Assembly: GCA_013003115.1 (NCBI GenBank)
Contig: JABDLF010000002.1
Coordinates: forward strand, 4,186-68,185
Length of the DNA stretch: 64,000 nt
DNA from: Gammaproteobacteria bacterium
GTDB lineage: Bacteria > Pseudomonadota > Gammaproteobacteria > Steroidobacterales > JABDLF01
Reading direction: 5' to 3'
Below the pieces are notes generated by a model. The model ran no database searches. It was not told where the DNA came from and saw only the letters and a list, made by a program, of their open reading frames with translations. Made by a program: the position numbers and the translations under genes. Below are positions 16,787-59,604 of this stretch, in pieces; position 1 is the stretch's first letter, and each line of letters begins with the position of its first letter.

Positions 16787-16789
16787 CAT

Positions 16790-18508: not shown

Positions 18509-18526
18509 GCGAGACAGGGAGCTCAG

Positions 18527-20134: not shown

Positions 20135-20138
20135 GCGC

Positions 20139-28579: not shown

Positions 28580-28853
28580 TCGAGGTTCCAGTGTCCTGAT
28601 ATAGCCGGTCAGCGATGCATTGTATCCCCGCTCGCTTGCGCAGCGCATCATTGCGATATTGCGATGCCTCGCTTTTGGCACATCCTGTATAATGCCGTGC
28701 TCGATCGAGGGCTCGCAGGGAGAGGATTTAAACTCCTGGAAGTCGTGCCCGGAGCCGGGAAATAAGACGCAAACAAGGCTTCCCAGGCGCGGCATTCACA
28801 GAAATGAATCATTCCTGCGCTTTGCCGGGCAGCTACACCTACAGGAGTTTTTC

Positions 28854-29933: not shown

Positions 29934-29934
29934 C

Positions 29935-30912: not shown

Positions 30913-30915
30913 CGC

Positions 30916-38425: not shown

Positions 38426-38429
38426 CTGC

Positions 38430-42257: not shown

Positions 42258-42264
42258 ATTGCTA

Positions 42265-42738
42265 TCACTCTTGATTTAATGCCAGCGACGGTGTTCGATT
42301 GCACTGCAGCCAGAACTTCGCAGCGGCCTGCAGATGCGTTTTGAATTCGTCAAAATTGAGAGATTTGGCCAGATAGGCGTTGGCGTGCGCCGAGTAGGCG
42401 CCGTCGATATCCGGCGCAGCCGTTGACGTGGTCAGAACCACCACAGGGATGGACCTCAGATTCGAGTCATTCTTGATAAAGCGTAGCAGGCTCAAACCAT
42501 CCAGCCTCGGCAGGCGCAGATCCATGAATATCAGTACCGGACGTGGACTCGCATTGGGGTCGCTGAAATGGCCTTTGCGCTCGAGGAATTCCAGCGCCGC
42601 TTCCCCGTCACTGACATGATACAGACGCGCCCCGATTTGCTCGCAATCCAGGCATCGCCCGATGAGTTCTGCGTGGTCAGGATTATCCTCGACCAGCAAA
42701 ACTGTCTGTGCGTAATCATCGTCAAAATTTCCTTCCAT
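42265..42738 (-). CDS. Single-domain (CheY-like) response regulator
   Basis: 157-aa REC-only protein (VLLVEDNPDHAELI ... LIFMDLRLPRLDG ... PVVVLTTS ... AYLAKS). Confidence 0.88.
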   Translation of the reverse strand: MEGNFDDDYAQTVLLVEDNPDHAELIGRCLDCEQIGARLYHVSDGEAALEFLERKGHFSDPNASPRPVLIFMDLRLPRLDGLSLLRFIKNDSNLRSIPVVVLTTSTAAPDIDGAYSAHANAYLAKSLNFDEFKTHLQAAAKFWLQCNRTPSLALNQE

Positions 42739-42829
42739 GGAATCGATCCCTCATGGACAACCAGCTAAATCATAGCATGTTGGAACATCTGGCCGCTGCG
42801 TTCGTTTTGCTCGCAGGCCGGTCCGAACC

Positions 42830-44914
42830 TCAACCCTTCTGGGACGGGCCTGCAGGCGGCAACACAAACACGAATCGTGCACCACTTAGCTCCCTACCCT
42901 GCTCAACCCATATGGTCCCGCCGTGAACCTGCAAAATTCGTCGGGCAAGAGACAGCCCGATCCCGGTGCCTTTGTCAGTCTGTTCGACCTGCTCAAAAAG
43001 CCCGAAAATCCTCTCACGGTCATCGGGATCAACGCCGGGCCCGTTGTCTTCAATAAAGTAGCGGTTTTCAGCCTCGAACTGCTCACACCCTATGATGACA
43101 TCAGGCGCGGTGCCCGTAGCCGTGAATTTAATAGCATTCTCCACAAGATTCTGCACCAGCTCGAACAGGCGTACAGGATCACCGCTGGCGTCAGGCAGCT
43201 CGTCGGCCACCTTTATTGTCGCGCCGCTGTCGGCAATCTGCCCCTGCATGATTTCGATCACCTCGTCGACCAGGCGGTTCATATTGACCCTTTGTTTCGG
43301 ACCACTCAGCTTGCCGCTGCGAGACAACACCAGCAAGCCGTCCAGCAGCTTCTGCATTCGAGCTGAGGCCTTATCGATGCGTGCCAGGTCCTGGCGCAGT
43401 TCCTCAGTGTTCCCGGCACCAATCTGACGAGCCATCTCCTTTGCGAAGCCACGAATAGTGATTATCGGGCTCTTCAGGTCATGGGATACCGTATAGGTGA
43501 ATCTTTCCAGCTCAAGATTCTTGTCAGCCAGATCAGAAACCAGCGCCGTCAGCCGGGCCTCTGCCTGTTCCTGCTCGGTAATGTCCACCGCAACCGTCAG
43601 CACGGCCGGCGAATTTGCCTCGTCCTGTTCAAGCAGCTGGCGTGAAACCCTCAGCTTGCGCTCTTCCCCGGCAGCGTTCTTCAGAATCTCTACGGACTCC
43701 TGGTCCACGGCCGTCTCAGAAAACACTTTTTTGTCCTCCTCTGCGAGTTTCTCAAGCCGCTCGCTGACGTCCGGCAAGGACTGTGACCCGGTATGTGTGA
43801 GTTCGCTCTCGCTTTGCCCCAGCACTCTGGCGGTCGCTCGATTTGCAAATACAAAGTCTCCGGCGGCGTCTCTGGCAAAAATCATGTGAGGCACCATGTT
43901 GATGATCGCACTCACTCGTTTTCTTGCCTGTTCCAGCAGTCTGGTTCTCACTCGAACCTCTCTGCCAAGTTCCTTGTTCCAGCGAGCTGTCAGGCCAAGA
44001 AAACCCAGCCCACTGGCAATAATCAGCAGCACGCTTACCCACGCAAGGTTGACGACAGCAGAATCTGCGAACGCCGCGATCTGGGCAGCGGAGAATCCTT
44101 CAGCGAGCTGCGATCCAATTCGCAGACGAGACAGATATGCGTTGCCCAGCGCAAATGCACACAACAGAAAAACCGCCATCAGCGTCGCCGCTGTTAACAT
44201 CAGCGCGCCTCGATGATGTCGGATGGCTACGCCAAACCAGCGGAACTTGAGTCGGGAAACAGCAGGCGTCAGCAAAAACAGAATTGGCCCGCAAATCAGA
44301 ACTGACTGCAGAAACCCGCCGAGCCACCAGCCCTCCCAGACGGCAAGCGTTTCCACTGTAGTCAGATTTTGGGTATGGCTCCAGATGAATGACCCCGATG
44401 CGCCGGCAAGTGCGGCGATAAACGAAGCCAGAACGTAGAATCCGATCGTCGCGATATTGCGTAAATCAAATCCTATTCCGGTGCTGCGATAAGCTATGGC
44501 GAGGAATGCCAGCCCCACCGTATCGGAAAACGCGAAAAGCACTGCCCACCCAGCCGGCATGTTCGAGTAAATGGCAAGTATGAAGGTAGCGAAATAGGCG
44601 GGTACAAAAGCCCACAAAAATCCCATCCAGAACAGCAACACTGTGCAGAATATCAACGGCGGATAAATGGTGACATGCGCATCGAAGCCCAGAAAATTGA
44701 ACGGGATGGCCGAAAGCTCGCTATCAATAACCACGATGCCAGTTCCGACGGAGACCAGAAGCGATAAAAACCAGAAAGAGAGGACCACGGCTGTACGCCA
44801 TCGAGAGTCGGCGGGCACTCGCAGCAAGTCATTTATACTTAAAGTCGACAGTTCACCGAGGGGCGCCTGGACCGAGACAGTGTGATTGGTCTCGTTGGAG
44901 TTTCTGTGCCTCAC
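42830..44914 (-). CDS. Membrane sensor histidine kinase (polytopic N-terminal domain, PAS, HisKA, HATPase)
   Basis: 694 aa. The first ~320 aa are strongly hydrophobic with multiple predicted TM helices. They are followed by a PAS-like segment, an H-box (FTYTVSHDLKSPIITIRGF) and an ATPase (EDNGPGV ... GTGIGLSLARRI). Confidence 0.88.
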   Translation of the reverse strand: MRHRNSNETNHTVSVQAPLGELSTLSINDLLRVPADSRWRTAVVLSFWFLSLLVSVGTGIVVIDSELSAIPFNFLGFDAHVTIYPPLIFCTVLLFWMGFLWAFVPAYFATFILAIYSNMPAGWAVLFAFSDTVGLAFLAIAYRSTGIGFDLRNIATIGFYVLASFIAALAGASGSFIWSHTQNLTTVETLAVWEGWWLGGFLQSVLICGPILFLLTPAVSRLKFRWFGVAIRHHRGALMLTAATLMAVFLLCAFALGNAYLSRLRIGSQLAEGFSAAQIAAFADSAVVNLAWVSVLLIIASGLGFLGLTARWNKELGREVRVRTRLLEQARKRVSAIINMVPHMIFARDAAGDFVFANRATARVLGQSESELTHTGSQSLPDVSERLEKLAEEDKKVFSETAVDQESVEILKNAAGEERKLRVSRQLLEQDEANSPAVLTVAVDITEQEQAEARLTALVSDLADKNLELERFTYTVSHDLKSPIITIRGFAKEMARQIGAGNTEELRQDLARIDKASARMQKLLDGLLVLSRSGKLSGPKQRVNMNRLVDEVIEIMQGQIADSGATIKVADELPDASGDPVRLFELVQNLVENAIKFTATGTAPDVIIGCEQFEAENRYFIEDNGPGVDPDDRERIFGLFEQVEQTDKGTGIGLSLARRILQVHGGTIWVEQGRELSGARFVFVLPPAGPSQKG

Positions 44915-45293: not shown

Positions 45294-46547
45294 ATGAAAC
45301 CAAGAAGATCAGGCCGCTTCGTCAGTCGACTTACCCGCAGCACCATGGCGCTGATCATGGCAGGAGGACGTGGAAGTCGGCTCAAACAGCTGACGCTGAA
45401 TCGCGCCAAACCCGCCACGCCGATTGCCGGCAAATTCAGAATCATAGATTTTCCACTTTCGAACTGCGTCAATTCGGGCATTCGCCAGATCCTGGTCCTG
45501 ACTCAGTACAAGGCGCATTCGCTGATTCAGCACGTTCGCAGGGGCTGGGGGTTTCTGCGCGGCGAGTTCGGCGAGTTCATTGAAATTGTGCCGGCCCAGC
45601 AACAAATTGGAGAAATGTGGTATCGAGGCACCGCTGATTGCGTGTATCAGAACCTCGACATCATCGAAGATCATAATCCGGAACATGTGCTGATTCTTGC
45701 GGGCGATCATGTCTACAAGATGGACTACGGCCCCATGATTGCCTACCACGTGGAAAAAGGCGCCGACATCACCGTGGGCGTACTGCGTATTCCTGTCTCC
45801 GAGGCCAGCGAATTCGGCGTGATGACCGTGGACAGCGAAGACCGCATCGTTCGTTTTACGGAAAAGCCGGAGAAGCCCGAGCCGACTCCTGATGATCCGG
45901 ATGCCGCGATGGTATCCATGGGCATTTACGTTTTTAACCGTGAACTCATGTGTGAGGTTCTGCGCAATGATGCAGAAGATGCGCAGTCTGTTCACGATTT
46001 TGGCAAGAACATCATTCCCGGCACGATTAATAATCGTCAGGTATTTGCCTATACGTTTACAGATGTCGAAACACGCGCTCAGAGTTACTGGCGGGATGTA
46101 GGCAATGTTGACGCCTACTTTGACGCAAATATGGAGCTGGTTCACGTCACACCTGAACTTGATCTGTACGACGATGACTGGCCAATCTGGACGTATCAGG
46201 AGCAGGCACCACCTGCAAAATTTGTGCTTGATGAAGATGGCCGCCGCGGCGTGGCCATCAATTCCATGGTGGCCGGCGGTTGCATCATATCGGGGGCGGT
46301 TGTGCGCCAGTCAGTGTTGTTCTCCAACGTGCTCGTAGACGAAGGATCCCGACTCGATGCCGCCGTAATTCTGCCCAATGTGAAGATCGGGAAAAACTGC
46401 GTGATCCGAAAGGCAGTCATTGATGAAAACTGTGATATTGCCGATGGCACGACGATTGGCGTGGATGCCGAGGAAGATGCGAAGCGTTTCTTTATCACCA
46501 GGAAAGGGGTTGCGCTGGTAACCGAGGACATGCTTCAAGGGCAATAA
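45294..46547 (+). CDS. glgC: Glucose-1-phosphate adenylyltransferase
   Basis: 417 aa from MKPRRSG, with motifs [45 protein letters not shown] and a C-terminal LbH domain. The longer track ORF starts at 45180. Confidence 0.92.
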
Positions 46548-46601
46548 TCAGCCGGGTGATATACTCGCGCGCCAGGTAACCACCCCCCGGACAACGCCAA
46601 T

Positions 46602-47831
46602 ATGCACGTCGTCTTTGTCGCCCCGTTTTTTATGCAGGCAACCCTGCGTTTCGTGTATGGCGCTGCCGAATTGCCAGGCGTACGACTCAGTCTCATCAGC
46701 CAGGATCCGCTGCACCGCTTGCCACCGTCTTTGCGTGCGAGGCTCGTCGGGCACGAGCAAATTGCCGACGGGCTTAATCCGGCGCAAATCGCCATCGCTG
46801 TCCAAAAACTTGCCGCCCACCTGGGCAGCCCCGGGCGCATTCTCGCAACGCTTGAGCAGGCACAGGTACCGGTCGCGCAAGTTCGGGAGGCTCTCAAAAT
46901 TGAAGGCCTTGGCGTCGAGGCTGCGCGCAACTTTCGCGACAAAGCGCGCATGAAATCAATACTGCGCGCTGAGGGCATTGCCTGCGCGCGCCACCGGCTT
47001 GCGGGCGATGCACGAACCGCCATCGACTTTGTCGAACAAGTCGGGTTCCCGATTGTGGTGAAGCCGCCGGCTGGCGCGGGCGCGAAGGCAACGTTCAAGC
47101 TCGAAAACGAGCGCGATCTGAGAAAGTACCTGAGTGCATACCCGCCAAATCCTGCCAACCCGGGTCTCCTGGAAGAGTTTATGACAGGCAGTGAGTTCTC
47201 ATTCGAAAGCGCGCTCCTTCGCGGCGAGACTTGCTGGAGTTCGTGGAGCGCATATATGCCTTCGCCACTGCAGGTGCTCGAGAACGACTGGATTCAATGG
47301 TGTGTGCTGCTGCCCAGAAACACCGGCGGGGACGAGCAGCGCGCAATTGCGCCGGCTGCAGCGAAGGCGTTGAAAGTGCTCGGACTCGAAAACGGGTTCA
47401 GCCACCTCGAATGGTTCCGCCGCGAAGACGGCAGCGTAGCAATCTCCGAAGTTGGGGCAAGGCCCCCTGGCGCGCAGTTTATGTCGTTGCTCTCGCACGC
47501 CCACGACTGGAACTTCTACCGGGGCTGGGCAGGCCTGATGGCGCTGGATGAGTTTGAGCCGCCCGAGCGCAAGTATGCCTGCGGTGCGGCTTACATCCGT
47601 GGACAGGGACGGGGTCCGGTGCGGGCGATTCATGGTCTCGACGCTGCACAGGCGCGCATGGGTCACCTCGTGGTCGAGGCGCATCTTCCAAAGCCCGGCC
47701 AGGCCGCGTCAGACAGCTATGAGGGAGACGGATTCGTAATTCTGCGACACCCCGACACGGACGTGGTCAAGGCGGCACTTAAGGAACTGGTGACCACCGT
47801 CCAGGTGGAAAGAGCGCCCTCAGGCGCCTGA
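46602..47831 (+). CDS. ATP-grasp domain protein, paralogue 1 of 3
   Basis: 409 aa with ATP-grasp core motifs (FRDKARMK, GFPIVVKPPAGAGAK, HLEWF, SEVGARPPGA). It is clearly alignable with the ORFs at 51960..53177 and 54774..55994. The substrate is unknown. Confidence 0.8.
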   Translation: MHVVFVAPFFMQATLRFVYGAAELPGVRLSLISQDPLHRLPPSLRARLVGHEQIADGLNPAQIAIAVQKLAAHLGSPGRILATLEQAQVPVAQVREALKIEGLGVEAARNFRDKARMKSILRAEGIACARHRLAGDARTAIDFVEQVGFPIVVKPPAGAGAKATFKLENERDLRKYLSAYPPNPANPGLLEEFMTGSEFSFESALLRGETCWSSWSAYMPSPLQVLENDWIQWCVLLPRNTGGDEQRAIAPAAAKALKVLGLENGFSHLEWFRREDGSVAISEVGARPPGAQFMSLLSHAHDWNFYRGWAGLMALDEFEPPERKYACGAAYIRGQGRGPVRAIHGLDAAQARMGHLVVEAHLPKPGQAASDSYEGDGFVILRHPDTDVVKAALKELVTTVQVERAPSGA

Positions 47832-47837
47832 CAGTTA

Positions 47838-48791
47838 ATGATCTCGCATCCAGACCGAACCGGGCTTATTGCCCTGCTGGGACCTCAGTCTCAGACCGCA
47901 AGCGTTGCGATGGCAGTGAACGCGCTCGGGGTTGATGGAAGCATCGGGGCAATCACGGCGGGCTGGCGCGACGCGGAAGGCGACATCGGGGAGCTGACCG
48001 AGCACCTGGGCGTCGAAGTCACAGACCTCGCCGTCTACGAACGTGTAGAGAAAATTTTTGCACTCGACGTCAGTCTGTTCCGGGCGCACCGCAAGCGCCA
48101 GGATATTCTTAAGCAGCTGCAGCGCCTTTACCGCGTGCGTCTGCGCTCCGGCGCAGATGCCTGCTACCGCCTCATGAAGCGAAGCGAAGATGCGGAACTC
48201 GTGCGCCTGCAGCTTCGAGGGGCGATCAGCCAGCTTCGCGCACTGGACCGGTTTCATTCTCGTCAAATCGCGAAGGTGCACAGCGAATTTGAAAAAGAGG
48301 TTGCGCTGGCTGAGCGGCCGGCCGTGCGGGAGCACCGATCAGAGATCGCCGAACAACTTAGCAGTCTCGGCGCTGTGCTTATCGCCGGCGGTCACGTCGC
48401 CGTGCTCGCGAGCCGTTTGCGTTTGCTCGGCATGCGCGAGCTGCTTGCCGGCCACGCGCTCATTGGCTGGTCAGCCGGTGCCATGATCATGACCGACCAG
48501 CTGGTTCTTTTTCACGACAAGGCACCCCAGGGCCGACGCGAGCCCGAGCTGCTGGATGTCGGGCTTGGAAGAGCGTCAAGGATTGTCGCACTTCCGGCAG
48601 CTACCCAAAGGTTGGATCTGGGGCAAGACGATCACCTCGCCCTGATGGCCCGACGATTTGCTCCCGCCAGCTGCCTGGCGCTGGATGAGAGTGACTGGAT
48701 TGCATGGAGCCACGACCGTCTGCTGGCAGCCCGCGGCGTCCGGCGCATAAAACGAAATGGCGTTCTTGCAGGAGTCAATGCCGGTGCATGA
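47838..48791 (+). CDS. Peptidase S51 / class-I glutamine-amidotransferase-like protein with coiled-coil insertion (tentative)
   Basis: 317 aa. The segment VLIAGGHVAVL ... LIGWSAGAMIM resembles the GGN ... GxSAGA nucleophile elbow of cyanophycinase and peptidase E. Residues ~70-165 are R/Q/E-rich and helical-looking. The family call rests on short motifs only. Confidence 0.5.
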   Translation: MISHPDRTGLIALLGPQSQTASVAMAVNALGVDGSIGAITAGWRDAEGDIGELTEHLGVEVTDLAVYERVEKIFALDVSLFRAHRKRQDILKQLQRLYRVRLRSGADACYRLMKRSEDAELVRLQLRGAISQLRALDRFHSRQIAKVHSEFEKEVALAERPAVREHRSEIAEQLSSLGAVLIAGGHVAVLASRLRLLGMRELLAGHALIGWSAGAMIMTDQLVLFHDKAPQGRREPELLDVGLGRASRIVALPAATQRLDLGQDDHLALMARRFAPASCLALDESDWIAWSHDRLLAARGVRRIKRNGVLAGVNAGA

Positions 48792-49920
48792 AAGTCTTCG
48801 CAATCTGATGCGCAAGGGTGCGCCCAGCCCGGATAAAGTCGAAAAATTTATTGCCGGGCACAGCTTTCCCATGGTCGCCGGCACCGACGTGACTTTCGTA
48901 TACCATGGCGATGCCGATGAGGTTTTCTTACGGCACTGGATTTTTGGTTTGCGTACTGCCCAGCCGCTGCAGAGACTTGCTGACACCCGGCTTTGGGCTG
49001 TCACCATTGAGCTCCCGGCCGAATCGCGAATTGAATACAAGTACGAGGTGATAGCAGGCGGCAACCGGCGCCTTGAGATGGATAGCCTCAATCCCTATCT
49101 GGCGCGCGATCCGTTCGGTGCCAATTCGGTTTGCCGTGGCTATCGTTATCAGCGCCCCGAGTGGACCATGCCCGACACGACGAGCAGGCAGGGCCAGTTC
49201 ACCCGCATGGCGGTGCAGAGCACGAGCTTTGGCGACACAAGGGAGATAGATATTTACCTGCCGGCACGTTACCGGAGCTCAAGACGCTATCCGTTGCTTA
49301 TCGTGCACGACGGTCATGATTACCTGCAATACTCGGACCTGCGCATAGTGCTGGATAATCTCATTCATCGGCTCGAGATTCCGCCCATGATCGTCGCGCT
49401 CACGACCTCGCCCGATCGGCTTAAGGAATACTCAGGTGACGAGCGCCACGCCAATTTTATTTGCAAGGAACTGCTGCCCGAGCTGTTGCGCGAGCTACCC
49501 ATAAGTGATGAGCCGCAGTCGCGCGCTCTGATGGGGGCCAGCTTTGGTGCGGTTGCCACCCTGCATGCCGCCTGGCGCAACCCTGGTTGTTTTGACCGCC
49601 TCCTCCTGCAGTCGGGCTCATTCGCTTTCAGCGACATCGGTGATCACGATCGCAGCGCGGCATTTGACCCCGTTGTGCGGTTCGTGAACAAATTCAGGGA
49701 CGACCCGGGACAGCCCGCGCAGAAAATCTACATGAGCTGCGGCGTCTATGAGTCCCTCATTTACGAGAACCGATCCATGGTGCCGTTGCTGCAGGCCCAT
49801 GAGATGCAGGTACGCTACGAGGAAGTGCGCGATGCGCACAACTGGGAAAACTGGCGCGACCGGATGCGGATGGGTCTGTCGTGGCTCTTTCCCGGCCCGC
49901 TGTGGATGGTTTACGAGTAA
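48778..49920 (+). CDS. Esterase (PF00756-like alpha/beta hydrolase) with N-terminal E-set/CBM48-like beta-sandwich
   Basis: The N-terminus (VTFVYHGDADEVFLRHW ... RLWAVTIELPAESRIEYKYEV ... DSLNP) has the pattern of CBM48/enterochelin-esterase N-domains. The catalytic part has YPLLIVHDGHDY and a GASFG nucleophile elbow. The ATG at 48778 follows GGAG and overlaps the upstream stop by 14 nt. Confidence 0.72.
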   Translation: MPVHESLRNLMRKGAPSPDKVEKFIAGHSFPMVAGTDVTFVYHGDADEVFLRHWIFGLRTAQPLQRLADTRLWAVTIELPAESRIEYKYEVIAGGNRRLEMDSLNPYLARDPFGANSVCRGYRYQRPEWTMPDTTSRQGQFTRMAVQSTSFGDTREIDIYLPARYRSSRRYPLLIVHDGHDYLQYSDLRIVLDNLIHRLEIPPMIVALTTSPDRLKEYSGDERHANFICKELLPELLRELPISDEPQSRALMGASFGAVATLHAAWRNPGCFDRLLLQSGSFAFSDIGDHDRSAAFDPVVRFVNKFRDDPGQPAQKIYMSCGVYESLIYENRSMVPLLQAHEMQVRYEEVRDAHNWENWRDRMRMGLSWLFPGPLWMVYE

Positions 49921-49976
49921 AATCCGGGTATTATTCTTTCAAGCGGCCGATTCGAAACCGTAAGGGCAAATAACCA

Positions 49977-51221
49977 ATGGCCAACATCACAAGAAAAATC
50001 GGTTTATCTCTGGGCGCGGATATCTGCTGGCCCATTTGCTACGAGGAAATACTTAAGCGGCTCGACCTCCATATCGACCATGAAGGCGATACGCTTAGTT
50101 TCGAATCGTCGCGCGTGACAATTGAGCCGTTTTCCCTGCGACAGAGTTGTCAGTATGAAGTCGTTATAGATCGGCTGACCCACTGGTATCACACCAGCCG
50201 CGAATGGATTAAAAAATCCATCGTCATGGATGACCTTTACGTATTTAATAACCCATGGACACTACAGTCCATGGAAAAACACACCAGCTATTGCGCGATG
50301 ATGAGGCTCGGCATGTCAGTGCCTGACACCTGGCTCATACCGCCAAAGTCCTATCTGGAGACCCCGGACCTTCAGCCCACGCTGTCCCGCTATGCGCGCC
50401 TGTTTGACATCGGGAAAGTCGGGGAGTCTCTGGGCTACCCCATATTCATGAAACCCTATGACGGGGGCGCCTGGGTGGGCGTCAGCAAAATTGACGACAG
50501 CGAAACTTTGTCCAATGCCTATGACGAAAGCGGGACCCGCGTGATGCATCTGCAGAAAGCCGTCATTCCATTCGATTGCTTTGTGAGATGCGTAGGCCTT
50601 GGCCCGCAGGTGCGTATCGTCAATTACAAGCCGGACGCCCCGCTCCACGATCGCTACGGAATGGAAGAAAATTTCATAAGCACCAAAGAAGAGAAATACC
50701 TGCGGGATATGACGCTGGTCATCAATGCGTTCTTTGGCTGGGATTTCAATTCCTGCGAGGCTCTGAGGAATGACGGAAAATGGAATCCCATTGACTTTGC
50801 GAATGGCTGTCCGGATTCACAGGTTACTTCTCTGCACTATCACTTCCCGTGGCTGATCAAAGCAAACCTGAAATGGTCCATTTTTTGCGCTGCTACTCGT
50901 CGTAATATGCGACTAAACCTGGACTGGCCGGAATATTTCGAAATTGCCGACAGCGACATGAGCTTCGAAGACAAGCTTGCGCGCTACGTAGCAAAAGCCG
51001 ACCAGCGATTTGAAACAGATCGCTTCGAAGAATTCTGCGCAACACATCTTTCTCATCTGGACGACGTGGCCGACGAGTTTTTCGGAAGCGAATTAGCCAT
51101 GGATGCCGTGCGGCAAAAAGTCGAGGCGCTGTTCCCTGCCCACGAGATTGACGAGTTCACGGCACTGTTCTGGCAACGCATCCAGGACTCTCGCAAGGCC
51201 GGGGCCGGCACTCATGTCTGA
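49977..51221 (+). CDS. Divergent ATP-grasp (RimK/glutathione-synthetase-like) protein with helical C-terminal extension
   Basis: 414 aa. The central region (KHTSYCAMMRLGMSVPDTWLIP ... GYPIFMKPYDGGAWVGVSKIDD ... MHLQKAV) fits the ATP-grasp phosphate-binding/B-loop pattern. It is unrelated in detail to the three paralogues. Confidence 0.55.
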   Translation: MANITRKIGLSLGADICWPICYEEILKRLDLHIDHEGDTLSFESSRVTIEPFSLRQSCQYEVVIDRLTHWYHTSREWIKKSIVMDDLYVFNNPWTLQSMEKHTSYCAMMRLGMSVPDTWLIPPKSYLETPDLQPTLSRYARLFDIGKVGESLGYPIFMKPYDGGAWVGVSKIDDSETLSNAYDESGTRVMHLQKAVIPFDCFVRCVGLGPQVRIVNYKPDAPLHDRYGMEENFISTKEEKYLRDMTLVINAFFGWDFNSCEALRNDGKWNPIDFANGCPDSQVTSLHYHFPWLIKANLKWSIFCAATRRNMRLNLDWPEYFEIADSDMSFEDKLARYVAKADQRFETDRFEEFCATHLSHLDDVADEFFGSELAMDAVRQKVEALFPAHEIDEFTALFWQRIQDSRKAGAGTHV

Positions 51222-51954
51222 CCTCGGTAAAGACGTCTTCAGCTGGTACTCACCCCACCTCGAGCAGGAGGTGAGGTTGGTGCGCTGGGGCCATTTTGGA
51301 AAGCCGGTGCTCCTTTTTCCTACCGCCGGCGGAGATGCGGAGGAAGTGGAGCGATTTCATCTTATCGGTGCCGTGGGTGACCTGATAACAAATGGCCGCG
51401 TCAAGATTTACTCTATCGACAGTGTGGCTGGCAAGACGTGGCTGTCGGGCGAGCACTCCCCCGAGTTTTGTTCGCGCGTTCAAAACCTCTTTGATATGCA
51501 CGTATACAAGGAAGTCGTGCCAGCAATCCGCAAAGACTGCGCATCATCTGACATTGAAATCATCGCAACAGGCGCGTCCATAGGGGCCTTTAACGCCGTG
51601 GCCAGCCTGTGCCGTCACCCTGATGCATTCAGCCTGGCAATCGGCATGAGCGGCACTTTCGATCTCTCGAAATACCTGCAAGGCCGAATGAACGATGACT
51701 TTTATTTCTCGTCACCGGTTCACTACTTGCCAGGCCTGCAGGAAGGTCCGCTGCTCGACGCGCTTCGCAAACGGCAGATTTTGCTGCCCACCGGCGAAGG
51801 CAGATGGGAAGACATCGGTGAATCATGGCGACTCGCCTCTATACTCGGCGAGAAAGGTATCCCGAATCGCGTCGACCCCTGGGGCGTTGACTACGATCAC
51901 AACTGGGTAACCTGGCGTGCGATGCTCCCGCGCTATCTTTCAGAATTCGCCTGA
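51214..51954 (+). CDS. Esterase family alpha/beta hydrolase (no N-terminal module)
   Basis: 246 aa from MSDLGKD, with PVLLFPTAGGD and a GASIGAFNAV nucleophile elbow. The start overlaps the upstream stop by 8 nt. Confidence 0.68.
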   Translation: MSDLGKDVFSWYSPHLEQEVRLVRWGHFGKPVLLFPTAGGDAEEVERFHLIGAVGDLITNGRVKIYSIDSVAGKTWLSGEHSPEFCSRVQNLFDMHVYKEVVPAIRKDCASSDIEIIATGASIGAFNAVASLCRHPDAFSLAIGMSGTFDLSKYLQGRMNDDFYFSSPVHYLPGLQEGPLLDALRKRQILLPTGEGRWEDIGESWRLASILGEKGIPNRVDPWGVDYDHNWVTWRAMLPRYLSEFA

Positions 51955-51959
51955 CTGTC

Positions 51960-53177
51960 TCAGCTGGCATAAATCTGCAGCTCGCTACCGACCCGATCTG
52001 CCATCGCCAGGGTGTCAGCCAATTCAGGATGGCGAAGCATAATAAAGCCATCTGACACCAGGGTCTGGCGCCAGTCGCGCCGGCGATTGCCGACACCGAG
52101 CAGCGTATTCCATACGACGTGCTGACCAAACGCTTCCTGAAGCGCGTCCAGCCCTTCGATGTGCCGAATCCGACCGTGCCCCTGTGCGCGCTTGTAAATG
52201 GTCGCAACGTTATACAGTCGCGATACGTCGAAATCGAAATCCTTGTCAGCCACTGCCGAGCCCCACGCTCTGAACACATCGAAGTCACAGGCGAATTTCA
52301 TCTGGTCCACCTGATGCGCCCCTGGTGGCCTGGCTCCGATTTCACCAAATACAACTTCTCCGTCAGCCTTGCGGTACCACTCCATGTGGGTAAACCCGGT
52401 TTCGAAATCCATGGCAGCGATGACTGCTTCGCCCATGCACAGACCATCTGCCAGGGCCTCATCCGTCACATCGCGCAGTGCTATCACCTGCGGGCTGATC
52501 CACTCGTTGCTTCGAGCAATGAGCGGGCGCGGACGATACCAGGCAACATTGTAATAGAGTATCTTGCCGTCCTGCGTGATCGTGTCAAAAGTGTATTCTT
52601 CGCCCTCAACAAACTCCTCAACGCTGACCAGCGGCACATGTCGAAGCTGCCCCAGGGCAGTACGAAGCTCATCCCGGTTATTGATCCGGTAAGTATCCGC
52701 TGAACCGGCACCGGCGATCGGCTTAATAATTATTGGGAAGCCAACCTGCTCAGCGGCCTCCCAGCAGGCAGCGGCCGAATCAGCAGCGAAATGTCGCGGC
52801 GTCCTGATCCCCGCCTCATCCAGCCTCTTTTTCATTGCTTCCTTGTCACGAAAGCACCGCGCCTGATCGGGGCGCATGCCAGGCACCGAAAATATTTCTC
52901 GCAGCTGGGCCGCGAGCATAATGCCCGGTTCCCACAGGCACTCGATGCGATCGAGGCTGCGCCCACTTAACTCTTGCCGAAGCCTCTCAGCTACCGCCTG
53001 CTCATCCCAGAGCGACGGCACGTGGATATAAGCCGCGAGATGCCTTCTCACAAGTTCCGGCAGCGCGCCGGAGTGCTGGTCGCCCACCCCGATCACCGTC
53101 GCGCCAGCCTCGCTCAGGCCGCGCGTAAACTCCGGCATATCCGCCGGATATCCGGGAGAAATCAGCAGTACGTTCAT
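51960..53177 (-). CDS. ATP-grasp domain protein, paralogue 2 of 3
   Basis: 405 aa from MNVLLISPGYP (AGAGGTG-like RBS upstream). Motifs: FRDKEAMK, GFPIIIKPIAGAGSA, HMEWY, GEIGARPPGA. It is the only minus-strand gene in the locus. Confidence 0.8.
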   Translation of the reverse strand: MNVLLISPGYPADMPEFTRGLSEAGATVIGVGDQHSGALPELVRRHLAAYIHVPSLWDEQAVAERLRQELSGRSLDRIECLWEPGIMLAAQLREIFSVPGMRPDQARCFRDKEAMKKRLDEAGIRTPRHFAADSAAACWEAAEQVGFPIIIKPIAGAGSADTYRINNRDELRTALGQLRHVPLVSVEEFVEGEEYTFDTITQDGKILYYNVAWYRPRPLIARSNEWISPQVIALRDVTDEALADGLCMGEAVIAAMDFETGFTHMEWYRKADGEVVFGEIGARPPGAHQVDQMKFACDFDVFRAWGSAVADKDFDFDVSRLYNVATIYKRAQGHGRIRHIEGLDALQEAFGQHVVWNTLLGVGNRRRDWRQTLVSDGFIMLRHPELADTLAMADRVGSELQIYAS

Positions 53178-53252
53178 CGTGTCGACACCTCTTGGCCGAG
53201 TAGCAAGCATGTACAATACACTCCCTGAAACCAATGTTCAGAAGAATCTAAA

Positions 53253-54728
53253 GTGCCTGAAAAAAACAGCCTGCGTATTCTAATGTGTGCCTCTGAGTTC
53301 GCGCCCCTGGCAAAAACCGGCGGTCTCGGCGACGTTACGGCTGCTCTAAGCGCCTACCTGCATCGCAGTGGTCATGATGTTCGCGTCCTGCTGCCGTTTT
53401 ACTCGTCGATCAAGACTGAAGGCTTGCAAGTATATCCCGTCGATTTCATGCAGGGCATCCAGGTCCGCCTGGGCGCGCACCAATTTTCCTGCGATGTCTA
53501 TGTCACCGAAATGCCCCGTGACGGCACGCCGGTTTATCTGCTGCACTGCCCGGCGCTGTACCATCGGGCAGGCATTTACACGGGCGGCGCCGACGAGCAC
53601 CTGCGCTTTATCATGCTCAATCGCATGGTTTTTGAGATGTGCCAGAGAATGGGCTGGGCACCTGACATTTTACATTGCAATGACTGGCACACCGCGCTTG
53701 TTCCGCTATACCACAAAGCGCTGTTTGACTGGGACAAACTTTTCAGTACGACACGCAGCCTGTTCAGCATTCATAACATCGGCTACCAGGGAACGGTAGG
53801 GACAGATGCGATGGAAGAACTCGGGTTGCAGGGCAAGGAAGGCCTGCTGCACCAGCAAGACCTGGCGGCGGGGCAAATCAATTTTATGCGCACCGGCATA
53901 CTTTATGCGGACGTCGTCGGCACTGTGAGCCCTACTTACGCCCGCGAGATCCAGACACCGGAATATGGCATGGGCATGGAAGAGATGCTCAGGGCCAGGG
54001 ATTCGTCAACCATCGGAATCCTTAATGGTGTGGACTACGATGATTGGAGCCCGCAGGCCGACAGTCTGATACCACGTAACTATGGTGCGGATGACATAGA
54101 GGGAAAGGAAGTCAACAAGCAGGTGCTCATGCGCGAGATGGGCATCGGTTATCAGCCTGGCGTACCGCTGCTTGGTCTGGTCGCAAGACTGACGGCACAA
54201 AAGGGTCTGGATCTGGTTGCAGAGGTCCTGCCCGCCCTGCTCAAGCGACGCAATTTTTCCTTTGTTGCTCTCGGCAGTGGCGAAGGCCGATATGCCGACT
54301 TCCTGTCGGAACTTCAGCGGAAATTTCCAGGGCGCGTCTGTTTCTACAGCGGATACAACAACAAGCTTGCCCACATGATTGAAGCGGGCGCCGACATGTT
54401 TCTGATGCCTTCCGCTTACGAGCCTTGCGGCTTGAATCAGATGTACAGCCTCAAATACGGCACCATCCCCATCGTGCGCAAGACCGGGGGACTGGCTGAC
54501 TCGGTACAGCTCTTCGACCCGTCGACGGGCAACGGCACAGGAATCGTGTTTCGGGATTACAACAAAGAAGGATTGTGGTGGGCCATCGATGCCGCTCTTA
54601 CGCTTTATCAGGACAAAAACGCCTGGAGCAAGATAATGGCTAACGCCATGGCCATGGACTTCAGCTGGGACAGGCAGGGCGCCGAATATGTACGCCTGTA
54701 TCGGGCCATGCTGGCTGCGCGTAACTAG
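53253..54728 (+). CDS. glgA: Glycogen synthase (ADP-glucose type)
   Basis: 491 aa with LRILMCASEFAPLAKTGGLGDV and C-terminal GT-B motifs (PSAYEPCGLNQMYSLKYGT, VRKTGGLADSV). A GTG start is needed to retain the first beta-strand. Confidence 0.92.
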   Translation: MPEKNSLRILMCASEFAPLAKTGGLGDVTAALSAYLHRSGHDVRVLLPFYSSIKTEGLQVYPVDFMQGIQVRLGAHQFSCDVYVTEMPRDGTPVYLLHCPALYHRAGIYTGGADEHLRFIMLNRMVFEMCQRMGWAPDILHCNDWHTALVPLYHKALFDWDKLFSTTRSLFSIHNIGYQGTVGTDAMEELGLQGKEGLLHQQDLAAGQINFMRTGILYADVVGTVSPTYAREIQTPEYGMGMEEMLRARDSSTIGILNGVDYDDWSPQADSLIPRNYGADDIEGKEVNKQVLMREMGIGYQPGVPLLGLVARLTAQKGLDLVAEVLPALLKRRNFSFVALGSGEGRYADFLSELQRKFPGRVCFYSGYNNKLAHMIEAGADMFLMPSAYEPCGLNQMYSLKYGTIPIVRKTGGLADSVQLFDPSTGNGTGIVFRDYNKEGLWWAIDAALTLYQDKNAWSKIMANAMAMDFSWDRQGAEYVRLYRAMLAARN

Positions 54729-54773
54729 ATAATTTGCAGGTGCGACTTTGCCGTCGCAATGGGACTCGACAAC

Positions 54774-55994
54774 ATGAACGTTATCTTTATTGAACCCTCA
54801 TTTCCCTATAACCAGCGCGAGTTCGTGCGCGCACTGCACGCCGTGGGTGCCAGGGTGATCGGCATCGGCGAGCGGCCCGCCGATTATCTCGACGACGAGG
54901 TGAAGGGTTGGCTCAGTCACTATGAGCAGGTGCGATCTGTGGTCCATGAGCCCTCGTTGCTGGCCGCCGTGCGGAAAATTCAAAGCATGGTCTGGGTCGA
55001 CCTGCTGGAGGCCACGGTAGAGGCGCATATTATGCCCGCGGCCAAGGTTCGGGAAGCCTGCGGCATACCTGGTACAAGCGTTAAAACGGCCTACCTGTGC
55101 CGCGACAAGCCAGCCATGAAGCAGGCATTGCGGGACGCCGGTGTTCCCTGCGCCCTGTCGACTCGCGCTACGGCACCCGAACATGTCTTGGCATTTGTCG
55201 CCAAGGCAGGTTTTCCAATTATTCTTAAGCCCTCGGCCGGTGCCGGTGCTTCGGGTACCTATAAAGTGAGCGATGAAGACGAACTCGGACCGGTAATGCA
55301 GGAATGCGGCTTGCATCATGGCAACGAGGTCGCTGTCGAAGAGTTTATCGAAGGTCACGAAGGATTTCTCGATACCATTTGTATCGACGGCGACGTCGCA
55401 CACGAGTTCATCACGCACTACTATCCCAATGTCCTGGTCGCTATGCGCGAGCGATGGATCTCACCTCAGATGGTCTGCACTAATCGCATGGACGCTGAAG
55501 GATATGATGACGTCAAGCGCATGGCACGCAAAGTAATCAGGGCGCTGGGAATCGGGACGTCGGCCACTCATATGGAATGGTTTTATGGTCCGAAAGGGCT
55601 CAAGTTTTCCGAAATCGGATGCCGGCCGCCCGGTGTCGGGCATTGGGATGTCTATAACGCTGCTAACGAGTTTGACACTTATGTGGAATGGGCCAGCGCC
55701 CTGGTTCAGGGTCGCCCGTTACAGTCACCTTCGCGACGATACGCATGCGGCATGATCGCACTCAGACCAGGTTGTGATGGTCACATAACAGGCTACGAGG
55801 GCGTGGAAGAAGTCAATCAGCGCTTCGGAGATTGCATCGTGCGTGCCAAGTTGCCGGAACCGGGCACTCCCACACAGCCGGTGGAAGCGGGCTACATGGC
55901 CAACGCCTGGATGCGGGTGCGTCATCCCGACTATGACACCCTGCGGGAAATACTGGATTTCATCGGACAGACAGTGAAAGTGCACGCCCGCTAG
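54774..55994 (+). CDS. ATP-grasp domain protein, paralogue 3 of 3
   Basis: 406 aa from MNVIFIEPSFP. Motifs: CRDKPAMK, GFPIILKPSAGAGAS, HMEWF, SEIGCRPPGV. The track ORF starts 15 nt earlier. Confidence 0.8.
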   Translation: MNVIFIEPSFPYNQREFVRALHAVGARVIGIGERPADYLDDEVKGWLSHYEQVRSVVHEPSLLAAVRKIQSMVWVDLLEATVEAHIMPAAKVREACGIPGTSVKTAYLCRDKPAMKQALRDAGVPCALSTRATAPEHVLAFVAKAGFPIILKPSAGAGASGTYKVSDEDELGPVMQECGLHHGNEVAVEEFIEGHEGFLDTICIDGDVAHEFITHYYPNVLVAMRERWISPQMVCTNRMDAEGYDDVKRMARKVIRALGIGTSATHMEWFYGPKGLKFSEIGCRPPGVGHWDVYNAANEFDTYVEWASALVQGRPLQSPSRRYACGMIALRPGCDGHITGYEGVEEVNQRFGDCIVRAKLPEPGTPTQPVEAGYMANAWMRVRHPDYDTLREILDFIGQTVKVHAR

Positions 55995-56020: not shown

Positions 56021-56049
56021 AAAAAGGGCCCGAATCGGGCCCTTTTTTT
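56021..56049. terminator. Bidirectional rho-independent terminator
   Basis: AAAAA-GGGCCCG-AAT-CGGGCCC-TTTTTTT: a perfect 7-bp GC stem flanked by an A-run and a T-run, between convergent genes (ATP-grasp on plus, cox subunit IV on minus). Confidence 0.8.
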
Positions 56050-56066
56050 GCCGCGTAAGACTGAAT

Positions 56067-56384
56067 TCAGTCTGAGAAAAGTTTCAGCCTCGTAAGAAAC
56101 GTGTAATCGGCCTCAACGCTCATCAATGCGACCAGAACCAGTAAACACAAAGGCGGCACCAGAATAGCGAAAATCAGCGACAGGCGCTCCCAGGCCATGT
56201 GCATGAATATGGCAATAATAAAGCCCGCCTTTAAAAACATGAAAAGCAGAATCAGGCTCCATCTCAGCATGCCCTGGAGCTGATAATAATCGACCATGTA
56301 GGAGAAGGCGCTGAGCACAAACAACAGCAGCCAGATCCACAGGTAAATACTAAGCGGGTGTTGCTGCCCTTCTGAATGCGCCAT
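56067..56384 (-). CDS. Cytochrome c oxidase subunit IV-like small membrane protein
   Basis: 105 aa from MAHSEGQQHP with three hydrophobic helices and an FMHM motif. It is the last gene of the cox string. The family assignment rests mainly on size and position. Confidence 0.6.
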   Translation of the reverse strand: MAHSEGQQHPLSIYLWIWLLLFVLSAFSYMVDYYQLQGMLRWSLILLFMFLKAGFIIAIFMHMAWERLSLIFAILVPPLCLLVLVALMSVEADYTFLTRLKLFSD

Positions 56385-56394
56385 GTGTCCGTCC

Positions 56395-57087
56395 CTACCA
56401 GAGATAGAAGAAAGCGAAAATGAATACCCAGACAAGATCAACAAAGTGCCAGTACAAACCCGTCACTTCGACGGTCTCGTAGGTACCCTTGCGATCGTAA
56501 AAACCGTTCATTACCCGTCGGGCCACGACCAGCAGATAGACGACCCCCGCTGACACATGAAGTCCGTGAAAGCCCGTGATCATGAAGAACGTCGAACCGA
56601 ACTGCGGAGCGCCCATGGGATTGCCCCAGGGTCTCACGCCCTCTTCCACTATCAGCTTGGTCCACTCGAATGCCTGCATGCCGACAAAGGTGGCGCCGAG
56701 GATCGCCGTGGCCAGCATCAGCATGGCGGTCTTCTTCTTGTCGCGCCGGTAACCGTAGTTGACCGCCAGCGCCATGGTGCCGCTGCTGGTGATCAGCACA
56801 AAGGTCATGATTGCTATGAGCAACAGTGGCACGTGGTTGCCGGCGATGGTCAGCGCAAACACTTCGCTTGCGTTGGGCCAGGGCACCGTGGTGGTCATGC
56901 GCACGGTCATGTAAGAGGTCAGGAAGCTGCCGAAAATAAAGGTATCGGACAGCAGGAAAATCCACATCATGGCCTTGCCCCAGGGCACCGGGAAGGTTTG
57001 TTTGTCACCGGACCAGTCTGTGACGACGCCGCCCAGACCGTCATTCAGTGCCGCATCACCGCCATGCCCTGGGAGTTCATTTGCCAT
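56395..57087 (-). CDS. ctaE: Cytochrome c oxidase subunit III
   Basis: 230-aa polytopic protein with subunit III motifs (FFMITGFHGLHVSAGV, YWHFVDLVWVFIF). Confidence 0.88.
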   Translation of the reverse strand: MANELPGHGGDAALNDGLGGVVTDWSGDKQTFPVPWGKAMMWIFLLSDTFIFGSFLTSYMTVRMTTTVPWPNASEVFALTIAGNHVPLLLIAIMTFVLITSSGTMALAVNYGYRRDKKKTAMLMLATAILGATFVGMQAFEWTKLIVEEGVRPWGNPMGAPQFGSTFFMITGFHGLHVSAGVVYLLVVARRVMNGFYDRKGTYETVEVTGLYWHFVDLVWVFIFAFFYLW

Positions 57088-57102
57088 GGTTCATATTCCT
57101 TA

Positions 57103-57768
57103 TCAGGTATTCAACAACAGGGCGAAGAGAAACAGCCAAACGAGTAACAGGAAATGCCAGTAGACGGTGCAAAGCTCCACGCTGAGTCTGAACTCGCCCA
57201 CTTTATCGACGCCGCGCAGGCGGTTGCTTGTGCGTGCCCAGACCCACAACCCCCCGACGAGGTGAATGCCATGGATGGCCGTCAGCAAATAGAAAAACGC
57301 TGCCGCCGGATTGCCGCGCATGTAGAACCCGGCATCACGGAGCTGACCCCAGGCAACCAGCTGACCAACGAGAAACGCAAATGACAATACGCCTGCTGCG
57401 ATCAGGGCTCTGCGCGTGGCGCGCACATCGTCACGACGGGCGCCGCGCAGGGCCTGATTCATGGCAATGCTGGCGAGCACGAGCACAACGGTGTTAATCC
57501 ATAAGACGGATGGCTCCTGCACACGCGACCAGTCCGCCAGCTCCATGCGCTGAACGTAGGCGCTGAAGAACAAGCCAAACATCGATGTGATCACTGCCAG
57601 GAGGACACCGAGCCCGAGTTTGCTTGGCAGAATTGACTGCGGCATTCCTGAGGGCCGGTTTTCCAGCGGATCGTCGGCGAGCCATGGCTGCCGGTTAATG
57701 GTCTGGCTCAGCAGGTAACCGATTACCAGCGCCATTATCAGGGCAAGAAATACCAGGGCCCAGGTCAT
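57103..57768 (-). CDS. Second cytochrome c oxidase subunit III family protein
   Basis: 221 aa with related motifs (FYLLTAIHGIHLVGGL, YWHFLLLVWLFLF). The start overlaps the subunit I stop (ATGA). Confidence 0.8.
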   Translation of the reverse strand: MTWALVFLALIMALVIGYLLSQTINRQPWLADDPLENRPSGMPQSILPSKLGLGVLLAVITSMFGLFFSAYVQRMELADWSRVQEPSVLWINTVVLVLASIAMNQALRGARRDDVRATRRALIAAGVLSFAFLVGQLVAWGQLRDAGFYMRGNPAAAFFYLLTAIHGIHLVGGLWVWARTSNRLRGVDKVGEFRLSVELCTVYWHFLLLVWLFLFALLLNT

Positions 57769-59534: not shown

Positions 59535-59604
59535 CAGCTATTCCTCCGGGCACTTTGCCCGCTAAATAATTTGTCTTCGCTGCGCCGCCGGGGCACGCAT
59601 ATAC

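Follow-up and report, generated by a model that had tools for sequence, protein, structure and literature searches.

Glycogen genes within a widespread bacterial module of ATP-grasp ligases and hydrolases: a candidate system for reversible glucan decoration

Introduction

Covalent groups that are written onto a storage glucan and erased again are known from reversible glucan phosphorylation, which involves GWD and PWD with SEX4 and LSF2 in plants and laforin in animals; the writers use an ATP-grasp-type nucleotide-binding fold, and the eraser is a hydrolase fused to a carbohydrate-binding module (CBM) of the CBM20/48 type. In mycobacteria, the acylated alpha-glucans known as MGLP receive their acyl groups from acyl-CoA via acyltransferases. 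Glycogen itself is seen as chemically simple in bacteria. Here we describe a locus in a 64,000-nucleotide stretch of a gammaproteobacterial genome (contig JABDLF010000002.1, positions 4,186 to 68,185 of the forward strand; hereafter the window) in which glgC and glgA are interleaved with four ATP-grasp proteins (AG1, AG2, AG3 and, by its predicted fold, the divergent AGdiv), two serine esterases (Est1 and Est2) and an S51-like protein, and we show that this gene set, a module of up to ten genes inside or beside glycogen genes, recurs in at least seven bacterial phyla.

The families that meet in this locus have described relatives with varied chemistry. ATP-grasp enzymes form esters as well as amides, as in VanA and MdnC; some modify proteins, RimK acting on S6, LysX on LysW and TTL on tubulin, and clusters built on stand-alone ATP-grasp ligases make bacilysin, rhizocticin, pheganomycin and similar products. 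An ester-linked group is expected to be erased by an esterase: enzymes of family CE1 strip acyl groups from polysaccharides, and seryl esters are cleaved by Fes. A preliminary description of the window, made from the sequence, had proposed that the locus either decorates the alpha-glucan with aminoacyl or peptidyl groups or makes a separate peptide or polyamide reserve co-regulated with glycogen, and had been unable to match the gene set to any characterised pathway. The latter statement holds, since apart from glgC and glgA no orthologue of a characterised pathway enzyme emerges by NCBIfam cut-offs or from the literature. We found no description of this cluster in the publications covered; the 2009 Iyer/Aravind survey of amidoligase neighbourhoods, which lay outside that coverage, may mention parts of it.

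Results

Distribution and gene coupling

The recurrence of the module is real, statistically robust and phylogenetically broad. We scanned one genome per species with AGdiv as the query, fetched the best 80 loci of 381 species and mapped the nine window proteins onto all open reading frames (ORFs) of the fetched loci; gene counts were taken among the 49 loci that extend at least 7 kb to either side of AGdiv (the fully flanked loci), and gaps between gene pairs were estimated from typical gene lengths. The proteobacterial loci are labelled as Gammaproteobacteria (Woeseiaceae, Steroidobacteraceae, Lysobacterales, Chromatiales) and Alphaproteobacteria, and the others as Acidobacteriota, Myxococcota (including the cultured Labilithrix luteola DSM 27648), Eisenbacteria, Planctomycetota, Chloroflexota and Actinomycetota. 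The arrangement lies far beyond chance, and is seen again in the 80 fetched loci, which come from several phyla. Est1 is present in 46 of the 49 fully flanked loci, Est2 and the S51-like protein in 44 each, AG3 in 41, AG1 in 30 and AG2 in 28. For glgA the count is 34 of 49 (within 10 kb), in several phyla, so that the linkage to glycogen genes suggested by the window extends well beyond one genome; glgC is found in five of these loci, malQ and glgB in four each and glgP in three, and 35 contain at least one glycogen gene. Conservation falls off steeply from gene to gene: identity is highest for AGdiv, the most conserved gene of the module (65-84% across the 381 species-level genomes), and ranges over 58-86% for AG3, about 50-87% for Est2, 46-77% for glgA and 36-70% for the S51-like protein; AG1 orthologues occur in 36 related loci at 43-86%.

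Three gene pairs are tightly coupled. Est2 immediately follows AGdiv in 72 loci (median gap about 2 nt), as Est1 does the S51-like gene in 68 (about -4 nt), and AG3 is immediately preceded by glgA in 40 (about 1 nt), the last pair being seen in Gammaproteobacteria, Myxococcota, Acidobacteriota and Chloroflexota. The locus of L. luteola (L065, NZ_CP012333.1 near 11.34-11.36 Mb), the only cultured carrier among the 80 fetched loci, has about 6.6 kb inserted between AGdiv (10001-11224) and Est2 (17870-18607), which are otherwise always adjacent.

The glycogen genes join the module in more than one way. In a second arrangement, seen in three loci (L033, L053 and L061), glgA-glgC is divergent from AG1-AG2. 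On a 1.8-Mb contig (L083), glgP-glgB-glgC-malQ is divergent from AG1-S51-Est1-AGdiv-Est2-AG2(-)-glgA-AG3 followed by a PGM1-like gene, and the glgA inside the module is the only one within the fetched 21-kb locus; the glgA of this glycogen gene set therefore sits inside the module. The gammaproteobacterial gene order is repeated in three further long contigs. The absence of glgB, glgP and malQ, which had been pointed out for the window, is correct there and does not extend to the relatives (L083 and others), where glgC, glgP, glgB or malQ join the module in differing arrangements.

Around these linkages the module has a recognisable core and a variable periphery. The S51-Est1 pair usually precedes an AGdiv-Est2-AG3 core; AG1 and AG2 travel as a pair, and the minus-strand orientation of AG2 is kept in gammaproteobacterial relatives. 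A minimal form, AGdiv-Est2-AG3, is found in loci of the alphaproteobacterial type (L041 and L068), with a divergent Est1 in two others (L047 and L064). L068 is labelled as a Bacillaceae metagenome-assembled genome; its organisation and flanking genes are nearly identical to those of the alphaproteobacterial L041, and it is probably a mis-binned contig. The lineage-specific additions to the module are all further ligases. A PGM1-like ATP-grasp gene, present in 18 of the 49 loci, follows AG3 in the Woeseia and Lysobacterales types, where a PurD-like ATP-grasp gene sometimes accompanies it. More than 20 non-gammaproteobacterial loci (L037, L038, L046, L049, L055, L058, L065-L067, L075-L078 and others) carry, directly after Est2, a 645-aa protein that joins a GCS2 carboxylate-amine ligase to two CBS domains, and some gammaproteobacterial loci without glgA carry GCS2 and RimK+RLAN genes.

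The glycogen enzymes and the AG1-3 ligases

All nine genes of the preliminary description are confirmed, with their order and strands (Table 1). The two glycogen genes are conventional. GlgC, with the Pfam domains NTP_transferase and Hexapep_GlmU, scores 644.5 bits against NF001947 (cut-off 470) and 498.9 against TIGR02091 (cut-off 424.9). GlgA scores 533.7 bits against TIGR02095 (cut-off 328.45) and matches Pfam Glyco_transf_5 at 7e-77; its alignment with E. coli GlgA (2qzs) is full-length, pairing residues 8-485 with 2-475 (E = 2e-92), and shows the KTGGL, HxxDWH, RLTxQKG and EPCGL motifs intact.

AG1, AG2 and AG3 had been described as three clear paralogues of about 405 aa with shared motifs. 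This is correct, with pairwise identities of 30-33% (32-33% between AG2 and each of the others), save that AG3 has VRHPD and not LRHPD. AG1 passes PF02222 (32.2 bits, cut-off 27) and reaches 19.6 bits against LAL_C2, a weak match below the cut-off of 29.4. AG2 exceeds the cut-offs of ATP-grasp_4, ATP-grasp_3 and ATP-grasp (PF13535, 33.7 bits against 27), and AG3, the most widespread and most conserved of the three, exceeds those of CPSase_L_D2, ATP-grasp and Ddl_C (PF02786, 38.4 bits against 19.8). The best solved relatives of all three are the L-amino-acid ligases (LALs) RizA and BacD, at low identity and E-values of 1e-13 to 1e-7; for AG3 the best sequence match in the PDB is RizA (4wd3, 7e-13), with BacD. 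No NCBIfam equivalog reaches its cut-off for AG1-3: the BacD model NF053745 gives 31-39 bits against 850, and the RimK family TIGR00768 30-32 bits against 143.4. The Mg-site motif SE[VI]G[AC]RPPG presumably resembles PurT and PurK more closely.

AGdiv

AGdiv forms a compact, isolated family. It matches no Pfam family at threshold, the Ddl C-terminal domain being hit below threshold only, and gives no match to the RimK family TIGR00768 at E <= 0.01. The databases hold more than 7000 homologues at about 70% identity to the query, and at 50% clustering one representative covers all full-length orthologues. A profile search returned 303 matches at E <= 1e-30; most of the 150 listed are shorter than full length, and none of those listed has an informative fusion partner. 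With no Pfam family, about 70% identity across phyla and this many homologues, AGdiv is a well-defined target for function assignment. A mobile or plasmid-borne origin was rejected, AGdiv having no tblastn match in PLSDB.

The AF2 model of AGdiv (pLDDT 76) predicts an ATP-grasp fold with an extra C-terminal helical domain. Its nearest folds by Foldseek are MdnC/MdnB, a ligase for peptides that are made on ribosomes and modified after translation (RiPPs), Ddl, LysX, RimK and ITPK1-type kinases; the probability is 1.0 for MdnC, Ddl, RimK and LysX, at TM-scores of 0.3-0.45 and with low pLDDT in the central lobe. Residues K159, D256, E261, D273 and N276 are invariant, and were matched to catalytic positions by eye only. 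AGdiv is also unusually rich in Trp, with 12 residues (2.9%, where other long ORFs of the window have 1.1%), and has 10 Cys; 10 of the Trp and 5 of the Cys are invariant in 35 homologues. A divergent AGdiv-like protein of 402 aa (P0374, L082:4118-5326) lies in a different context, beside a MATCAP (PF08014) peptidase, an AMP-binding enzyme, a pyrophosphatase, an alpha/beta-hydrolase and two unannotated genes, a neighbourhood that may represent a sister system.

The hydrolases

Est1 and Est2 both match PF00756 (2e-20 for Est1; 28.8 bits against a cut-off of 22 for Est2) and both keep invariant GxSxG and HxW motifs. In Est1 the GASFG serine (S255) and the HNW histidine (H354) are invariant among orthologues, and in Est2 the GASIG serine (S122) and H229 are invariant in 26 orthologues with a mean identity of 67%. 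A profile search of the PDB with Est1 found Fes (2b20) at 3e-22, followed by CE1 feruloyl esterases; Est1 nonetheless stays below the Fes equivalog NF007758 (106.8 bits, cut-off 222). Est2 gives marginal PDB matches only, being distant from every solved structure.

The N-terminal domain of Est1 (residues 1-135) had been called CBM48-like, a label that the domain searches back at sub-threshold level only. Its nearest family is the Fes N-terminal domain: Enterochelin_N is matched, below threshold, in 27 of 27 orthologues, and the CBM matches (CBM_20 in 20 of 27, with a best E of 4e-4, CBM_48 in 6 and AMPK1_CBM in 2) are likewise all below threshold. The best PDB match of the domain profile is the starch-binding domain of glucoamylase (E = 0.0024), and the conserved W73 and K88 of Est1 align with W563 and K578 of the glucoamylase CBM20; the second Trp is not conserved in the window's Est1.

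The other end of Est1 is more unusual. The C-terminus (49897-49917) follows the pattern GP(L/A/V)(W/L)(M/L/I)(V/I/M)Y(E/D)-COOH, with VYE in the window, and Y[E/D] is the terminus in 72 of the 78 Est1 orthologues, which come from all phyla (L002-L086). Five clear exceptions (L034, L047, L064, L069 and L070) are exactly the loci without the S51 gene. Est1 alone among the module proteins has an invariant last residue, and the Y[E/D] terminus could be a ligation or docking site.

For the S51-like protein the proposed assignment is upheld by a marginal pass of PF03575 (26.7 bits, cut-off 23.9) and by a cyanophycinase-like predicted fold; at the sequence level it has no match to the solved S51 enzymes in the PDB, even with a 37-sequence profile, and no NCBIfam match. 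The AF2 model (pLDDT 91) contains an inserted helical hairpin of about 100 residues. Its best Foldseek matches are the cyanophycinases 3en0 and 7uqw, pseudo-CphB and peptidase E, with CphB the nearest (E = 3e-6, TM about 0.5). The serine of WSAGAM (S212), H226 and E237 are invariant in 37 homologues; H226 and E237 are candidates for the His and Glu of the triad, which the alignment could not place.

Layout and genomic context

Measured from the internal ATG starts of Est1 (48778) and Est2 (51214), the genes of the locus are spaced as in an operon: three gaps measure 54, 6 and 56 nt, and two overlaps measure 14 and 8 nt, the last between the start of Est2 and the stop codon of AGdiv. The 6-nt gap and both overlaps had been given correctly before. 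Gene orientation suggests at least three transcription units, namely glgC to Est2, AG2 alone and glgA-AG3, with AG2 and glgA divergent from a shared intergenic region of about 75 nt.

Table 1. Features of the glg-associated locus, in window coordinates.
Feature	Position	Strand	Description
glgC	45294-46547	+	glucose-1-phosphate adenylyltransferase, 417 aa from ATG; ORF opens at TTG 45180
AG1	46602-47831	+	ATP-grasp ligase of the L-amino-acid-ligase/PurT-like kind, 409 aa
S51-like	47838-48791	+	serine peptidase-like, long helical-hairpin insertion, 317 aa
Est1	48778-49920	+	Fes/CE1-like serine esterase with N-terminal beta-sandwich domain, 380 aa; ORF opens at 48757
AGdiv	49977-51221	+	divergent ATP-grasp protein, extra C-terminal helical domain (predicted), 414 aa
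Est2	51214-51954	+	single-domain serine esterase, 246 aa; ORF opens at 51103
AG2	51960-53177	-	ATP-grasp ligase paralogue, 405 aa from ATG 53177; ORF runs to TTG 53234
glgA	53253-54728	+	ADP-glucose-type glycogen synthase, 491 aa, GTG start
AG3	54759-55994	+	ATP-grasp ligase, 411 aa; orthologues suggest a possible start at the second ATG, 54774
Bidirectional intrinsic terminator	56021-56051		between AG3 and the convergent cox operon

The strong bidirectional terminator reported at the end of the locus, AAAAAGGGCCCGAATCGGGCCCTTTTTTT, is confirmed. It has a perfect 7-bp GC stem flanked by A5 and T7, and folds at -22.9 kcal/mol (z = -4.07; 0 of 200 shuffles as good); the promoter/terminator scanner gave no call at this hairpin, which the folding confirmed. 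The window contains no Rfam family and no tRNA. In the window, neither glgC nor AG1 has a sigma-54 promoter upstream, and AG1 has none in 30 relatives; sigma-54 matches across the window occur at chance level. No signal peptide was seen by eye in the locus proteins, whose highest 19-residue hydropathy is 1.0-1.8 (borderline in GlgC and the S51-like protein), which makes an intracellular substrate the most likely. A defence system was rejected as a reading of the locus, the PADLOC models giving no match among the seven non-glg proteins.

Directly upstream of glgC, and divergent from it, a regulatory block (37778-44914, minus strand) encodes a LuxR-type response regulator, a stand-alone receiver, a 694-aa PAS histidine kinase and a 1275-aa hybrid kinase with an N-terminal receiver and at least six PAS domains. 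This block of sensors and regulators could be a regulator of the locus. Beyond it, 8 kb upstream of the locus and with only sensor and regulator genes in between, lies a giant NAD-specific glutamate dehydrogenase (32297-37138, 1613 aa) with all Bac_GDH domains. Farther away is a large block of branched-chain amino-acid catabolism (4960-22088 and 28620-32145), with an IcmF-like fused B12 mutase with MeaB (1148 aa), a Leu/Glu-type dehydrogenase, an acyl-CoA dehydrogenase, both methylcrotonyl-CoA carboxylase subunits, ETF-QO, an acyl-CoA synthetase and 2-oxoacid dehydrogenase E1/E2. On the other side of the terminator, the convergent cytochrome c oxidase operon (56067-60957, minus strand) encodes two COX3-like proteins (230 and 221 aa), COX4_pro, COX1 and COX2 fused to cytochrome c domains.

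Discussion

A reversible decoration of the glucan

The gene content of the module, its conserved catalytic motifs, the coupling of its genes and their linkage to glg genes in several phyla are observed directly, and any account of the locus has to start from them. From these, and from the predicted folds of AGdiv and the S51-like protein, we infer the substrates, the type of bond and the roles of individual enzymes as writers or erasers. The reading that we favour, tentatively and in the knowledge that it is somewhat more apt to be wrong than right, is that the locus encodes a conserved cytoplasmic module of ligases and hydrolases that works together with glycogen synthesis, running a write/erase cycle that places aminoacyl or peptidyl groups on the alpha-glucan. 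The ATP-grasp enzymes would activate amino-acid carboxylates as acyl-phosphates, with AGdiv and AG3 as the universal ligase pair and AG1, AG2 and the lineage-specific ligases as accessories. The acceptor of one residue, or of a short peptide, would be the alpha-1,4-glucan produced by the co-transcribed GlgA from the ADP-glucose of GlgC; the group would first be bound to a glucose hydroxyl as an ester, and further ligases would extend the peptide. Est2 and Est1, the latter perhaps held on the glucan by its N-terminal beta-sandwich domain, would remove the ester-linked group, and the cyanophycinase-like S51 peptidase would cut back the peptide portion. In this way glycogen would be decorated reversibly, and might serve as a combined reserve of carbon and nitrogen.

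We favour glucan decoration because the linkages to glg genes are independent and at translational-coupling distances, LAL-like ligases adjoining these genes in at least two independent arrangements, and because the module retains two esterases, active-looking carboxyl-esterases of the Fes/CE1 family to judge from their motifs, for which amide chemistry has no need. Also in its favour are the weak CBM20/48 signal in Est1, the precedent for ester-forming ATP-grasps in VanA and MdnC, and the Trp-rich, extremely constrained sequence of AGdiv; the invariant Trp residues would suit a carbohydrate-binding surface, which is a circumstantial point. A broader claim, that many environmental bacteria decorate their glycogen with amino acids or short peptides and so make a hybrid carbon-nitrogen storage polymer, the first carboxyl-ester counterpart of the starch and glycogen phosphorylation cycle, is a doubtful one at present.

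Several observations weigh against a decorated glucan. We know of no aminoacylated glycogen. About 30% of the fully flanked loci have no glycogen gene within 10 kb, and the minimal alphaproteobacterial form has neither a nearby glgA nor an S51 gene. By profile, the N-terminal domain of Est1 resembles its Fes counterpart more closely than any CBM. With four to six ligases in each locus, and GCS2-CBS, RimK-like and PGM1-like enzymes among the additions, the module looks more like peptide assembly than like a single decoration, and the cyanophycinase-like fold predicted for the S51 protein suggests that its substrate is a polyamide.

A separate amino-acid-derived product

These same observations feed the strongest alternative, which we think rather unlikely in itself and yet nearly as likely as glucan decoration: that the module makes and recycles a separate amino-acid-derived product, such as a polyamide akin to cyanophycin, a reserve of short peptides or a peptide osmolyte, co-regulated with glycogen. 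The stand-alone ligases would build this product and the S51 peptidase and the two alpha/beta-hydrolases would degrade it, with carbon and nitrogen reserves regulated together. The cyanophycinases among the best fold matches of the S51 protein fit such a product, as do the similarity of AG1-3 to dipeptide-forming LALs, the resemblance of AGdiv to RimK and LysX besides MdnC, and the persistence of the core where no glycogen gene adjoins it. So does the lineage-by-lineage addition of amide ligases (PGM1-like, GCS2-CBS, RimK+RLAN and PurD-like), and the CBS domains of the GCS2 ligase suggest that it is regulated through the energy state. Nonetheless, the two conserved carboxyl-esterases have no obvious role in amide chemistry, and the locus has no CphA-like architecture, with no Mur-ligase domain and scores far below the cut-offs of the cyanophycin synthetase models. 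Co-regulation, moreover, poorly explains why glgA and AG3 lie at translational-coupling distances across phyla, or why glgCA and AG1-AG2 meet in a second arrangement, and no conserved sigma-54 (nitrogen-type) promoter was found upstream of glgC or AG1.

Modification of a protein

A protein substrate is improbable. Here the ligases would add amino acids to the VYE tail of Est1 or to a glycogen enzyme, the S51 protein would remove them, and the activity of the esterase or the glycogen enzyme would be tuned as a result. The conserved Est1 terminus, with its five clear exceptions at the loci that lack S51, is what such a scheme would lead one to expect; the fold neighbours of AGdiv (MdnC, RiPP ligases, RimK and LysX) act on peptide or protein substrates, and the divergent AGdiv-like gene adjoins a gene for a MATCAP-type carboxypeptidase. 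However, AGdiv-Est2-AG3 occurs without any Est1 in L041 and L068, and the Est1 tail therefore cannot be the obligatory substrate of AGdiv. The correlation between tail and S51 may reflect one or two evolutionary events only, and the scheme gives no role to Est2 or to the many LAL-type ligases.

A secondary-metabolite cluster

The least likely account, and a very improbable one, is that a cluster for a small peptide antibiotic, graspetide or siderophore lies beside the glg genes by chance: Est1 does resemble enterochelin esterase, but it scores 107 bits where the Fes equivalog requires 222, the glg linkage recurs in independent arrangements, an AGdiv identity of 65-84% across phyla with constant gene content is untypical of such clusters, and the window and annotated relatives contain no tailoring or resistance genes. 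Two specific forms of it were considered and rejected. For a graspetide, there is no precursor-peptide ORF and no conserved small ORF in the locus, whose gaps are at most 57 nt; for a siderophore, the window and annotated relatives hold no transporter, TonB-dependent receptor or genes of siderophore synthesis or uptake.

Regardless of whether the glucan itself is decorated or a separate reserve is made, the outcome would be new biochemistry: a modified alpha-glucan in the one case, and a peptide or polyamide reserve made by stand-alone ATP-grasp ligases in the other. In either case the module implies an unrecognised layer of storage metabolism in lineages that are abundant in sediment, soil and wastewater (Woeseiaceae, Steroidobacteraceae, Kofleriaceae).

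Comparison with known systems

As a system the locus matches no known kind; it is not a cyanophycin, graspetide, siderophore or defence locus. Each of its proteins belongs to a known fold superfamily, and the novelty lies in the system. Cyanophycin metabolism (CphA/CphB) shares with it the pairing of an ATP-grasp ligase with an S51-fold serine hydrolase and the cytoplasmic logic of storing and mobilising. Unlike cyanophycin genes, the locus has no Mur-ligase domain (29-39 bits against TIGR02068 and NF010623, with cut-offs of 850-877), its S51 protein carries the helical insertion of about 100 residues and lacks a sequence match to solved S51 enzymes, and its two esterases and three LAL-like ligases have no cyanophycin counterpart. 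To our knowledge, linkage to glgA is not a feature of cyanophycin genes.

The enzymes taken singly lead to other systems. With the LALs (BacD/YwfE, RizA, BL00235 and TabS), AG1-3 share the ATP-grasp core and their best PDB matches, whereas they fail every curated threshold and stand among glycogen genes and not in a setting of antibiotic synthesis. With RimK/S6, LysX/LysW and the MdnC cyclases the locus shares the fold neighbourhood predicted for AGdiv, and the terminal Glu of Est1 is a possible acceptor; in contrast to those systems it has no gene for a precursor or carrier protein, and the predicted extra C-terminal helical domain of AGdiv belongs to no Pfam family. Est1 has the two-domain architecture and the catalytic Ser and His motifs of Fes and of CE1 esterases with an N-terminal CBM48, and its profile match to Fes covers part of the N-terminal domain. 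It differs in having no siderophore or xylan context, in appearing cytoplasmic, in carrying YKF in the N-terminal domain, as CBM20/48 modules do, where Fes has YCF, and in the conserved C-terminal VYE, which is found in Est1 alone.

Two systems modify alpha-glucans. Like the MGLP, the decorated polymer that we favour would be a cytoplasmic alpha-1,4-glucan from a GlgA-like enzyme with ester-linked acyl groups; unlike the locus, the MGLP system works without ATP-grasp ligases or an S51 peptidase, and it belongs to unrelated taxa. The closer parallel is glucan phosphorylation, and even there the analogy with SEX4 and CBM48 drawn in the preliminary description proves weaker than stated, since Est1 shares its domain architecture with Fes: the assignment to a CBM stays below threshold, the hydrolases are Ser-His carboxyl-esterases and not Cys phosphatases, and the ligases are of the Ddl/LAL/RimK type and not PPDK-like dikinases. 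What the proposed module would share with glucan phosphorylation is a logic, a cycle of writing and erasing on an alpha-glucan, and with it an eraser candidate, Est1, in which a beta-sandwich N-terminal domain, putatively of the same superfamily, is fused to a hydrolase.

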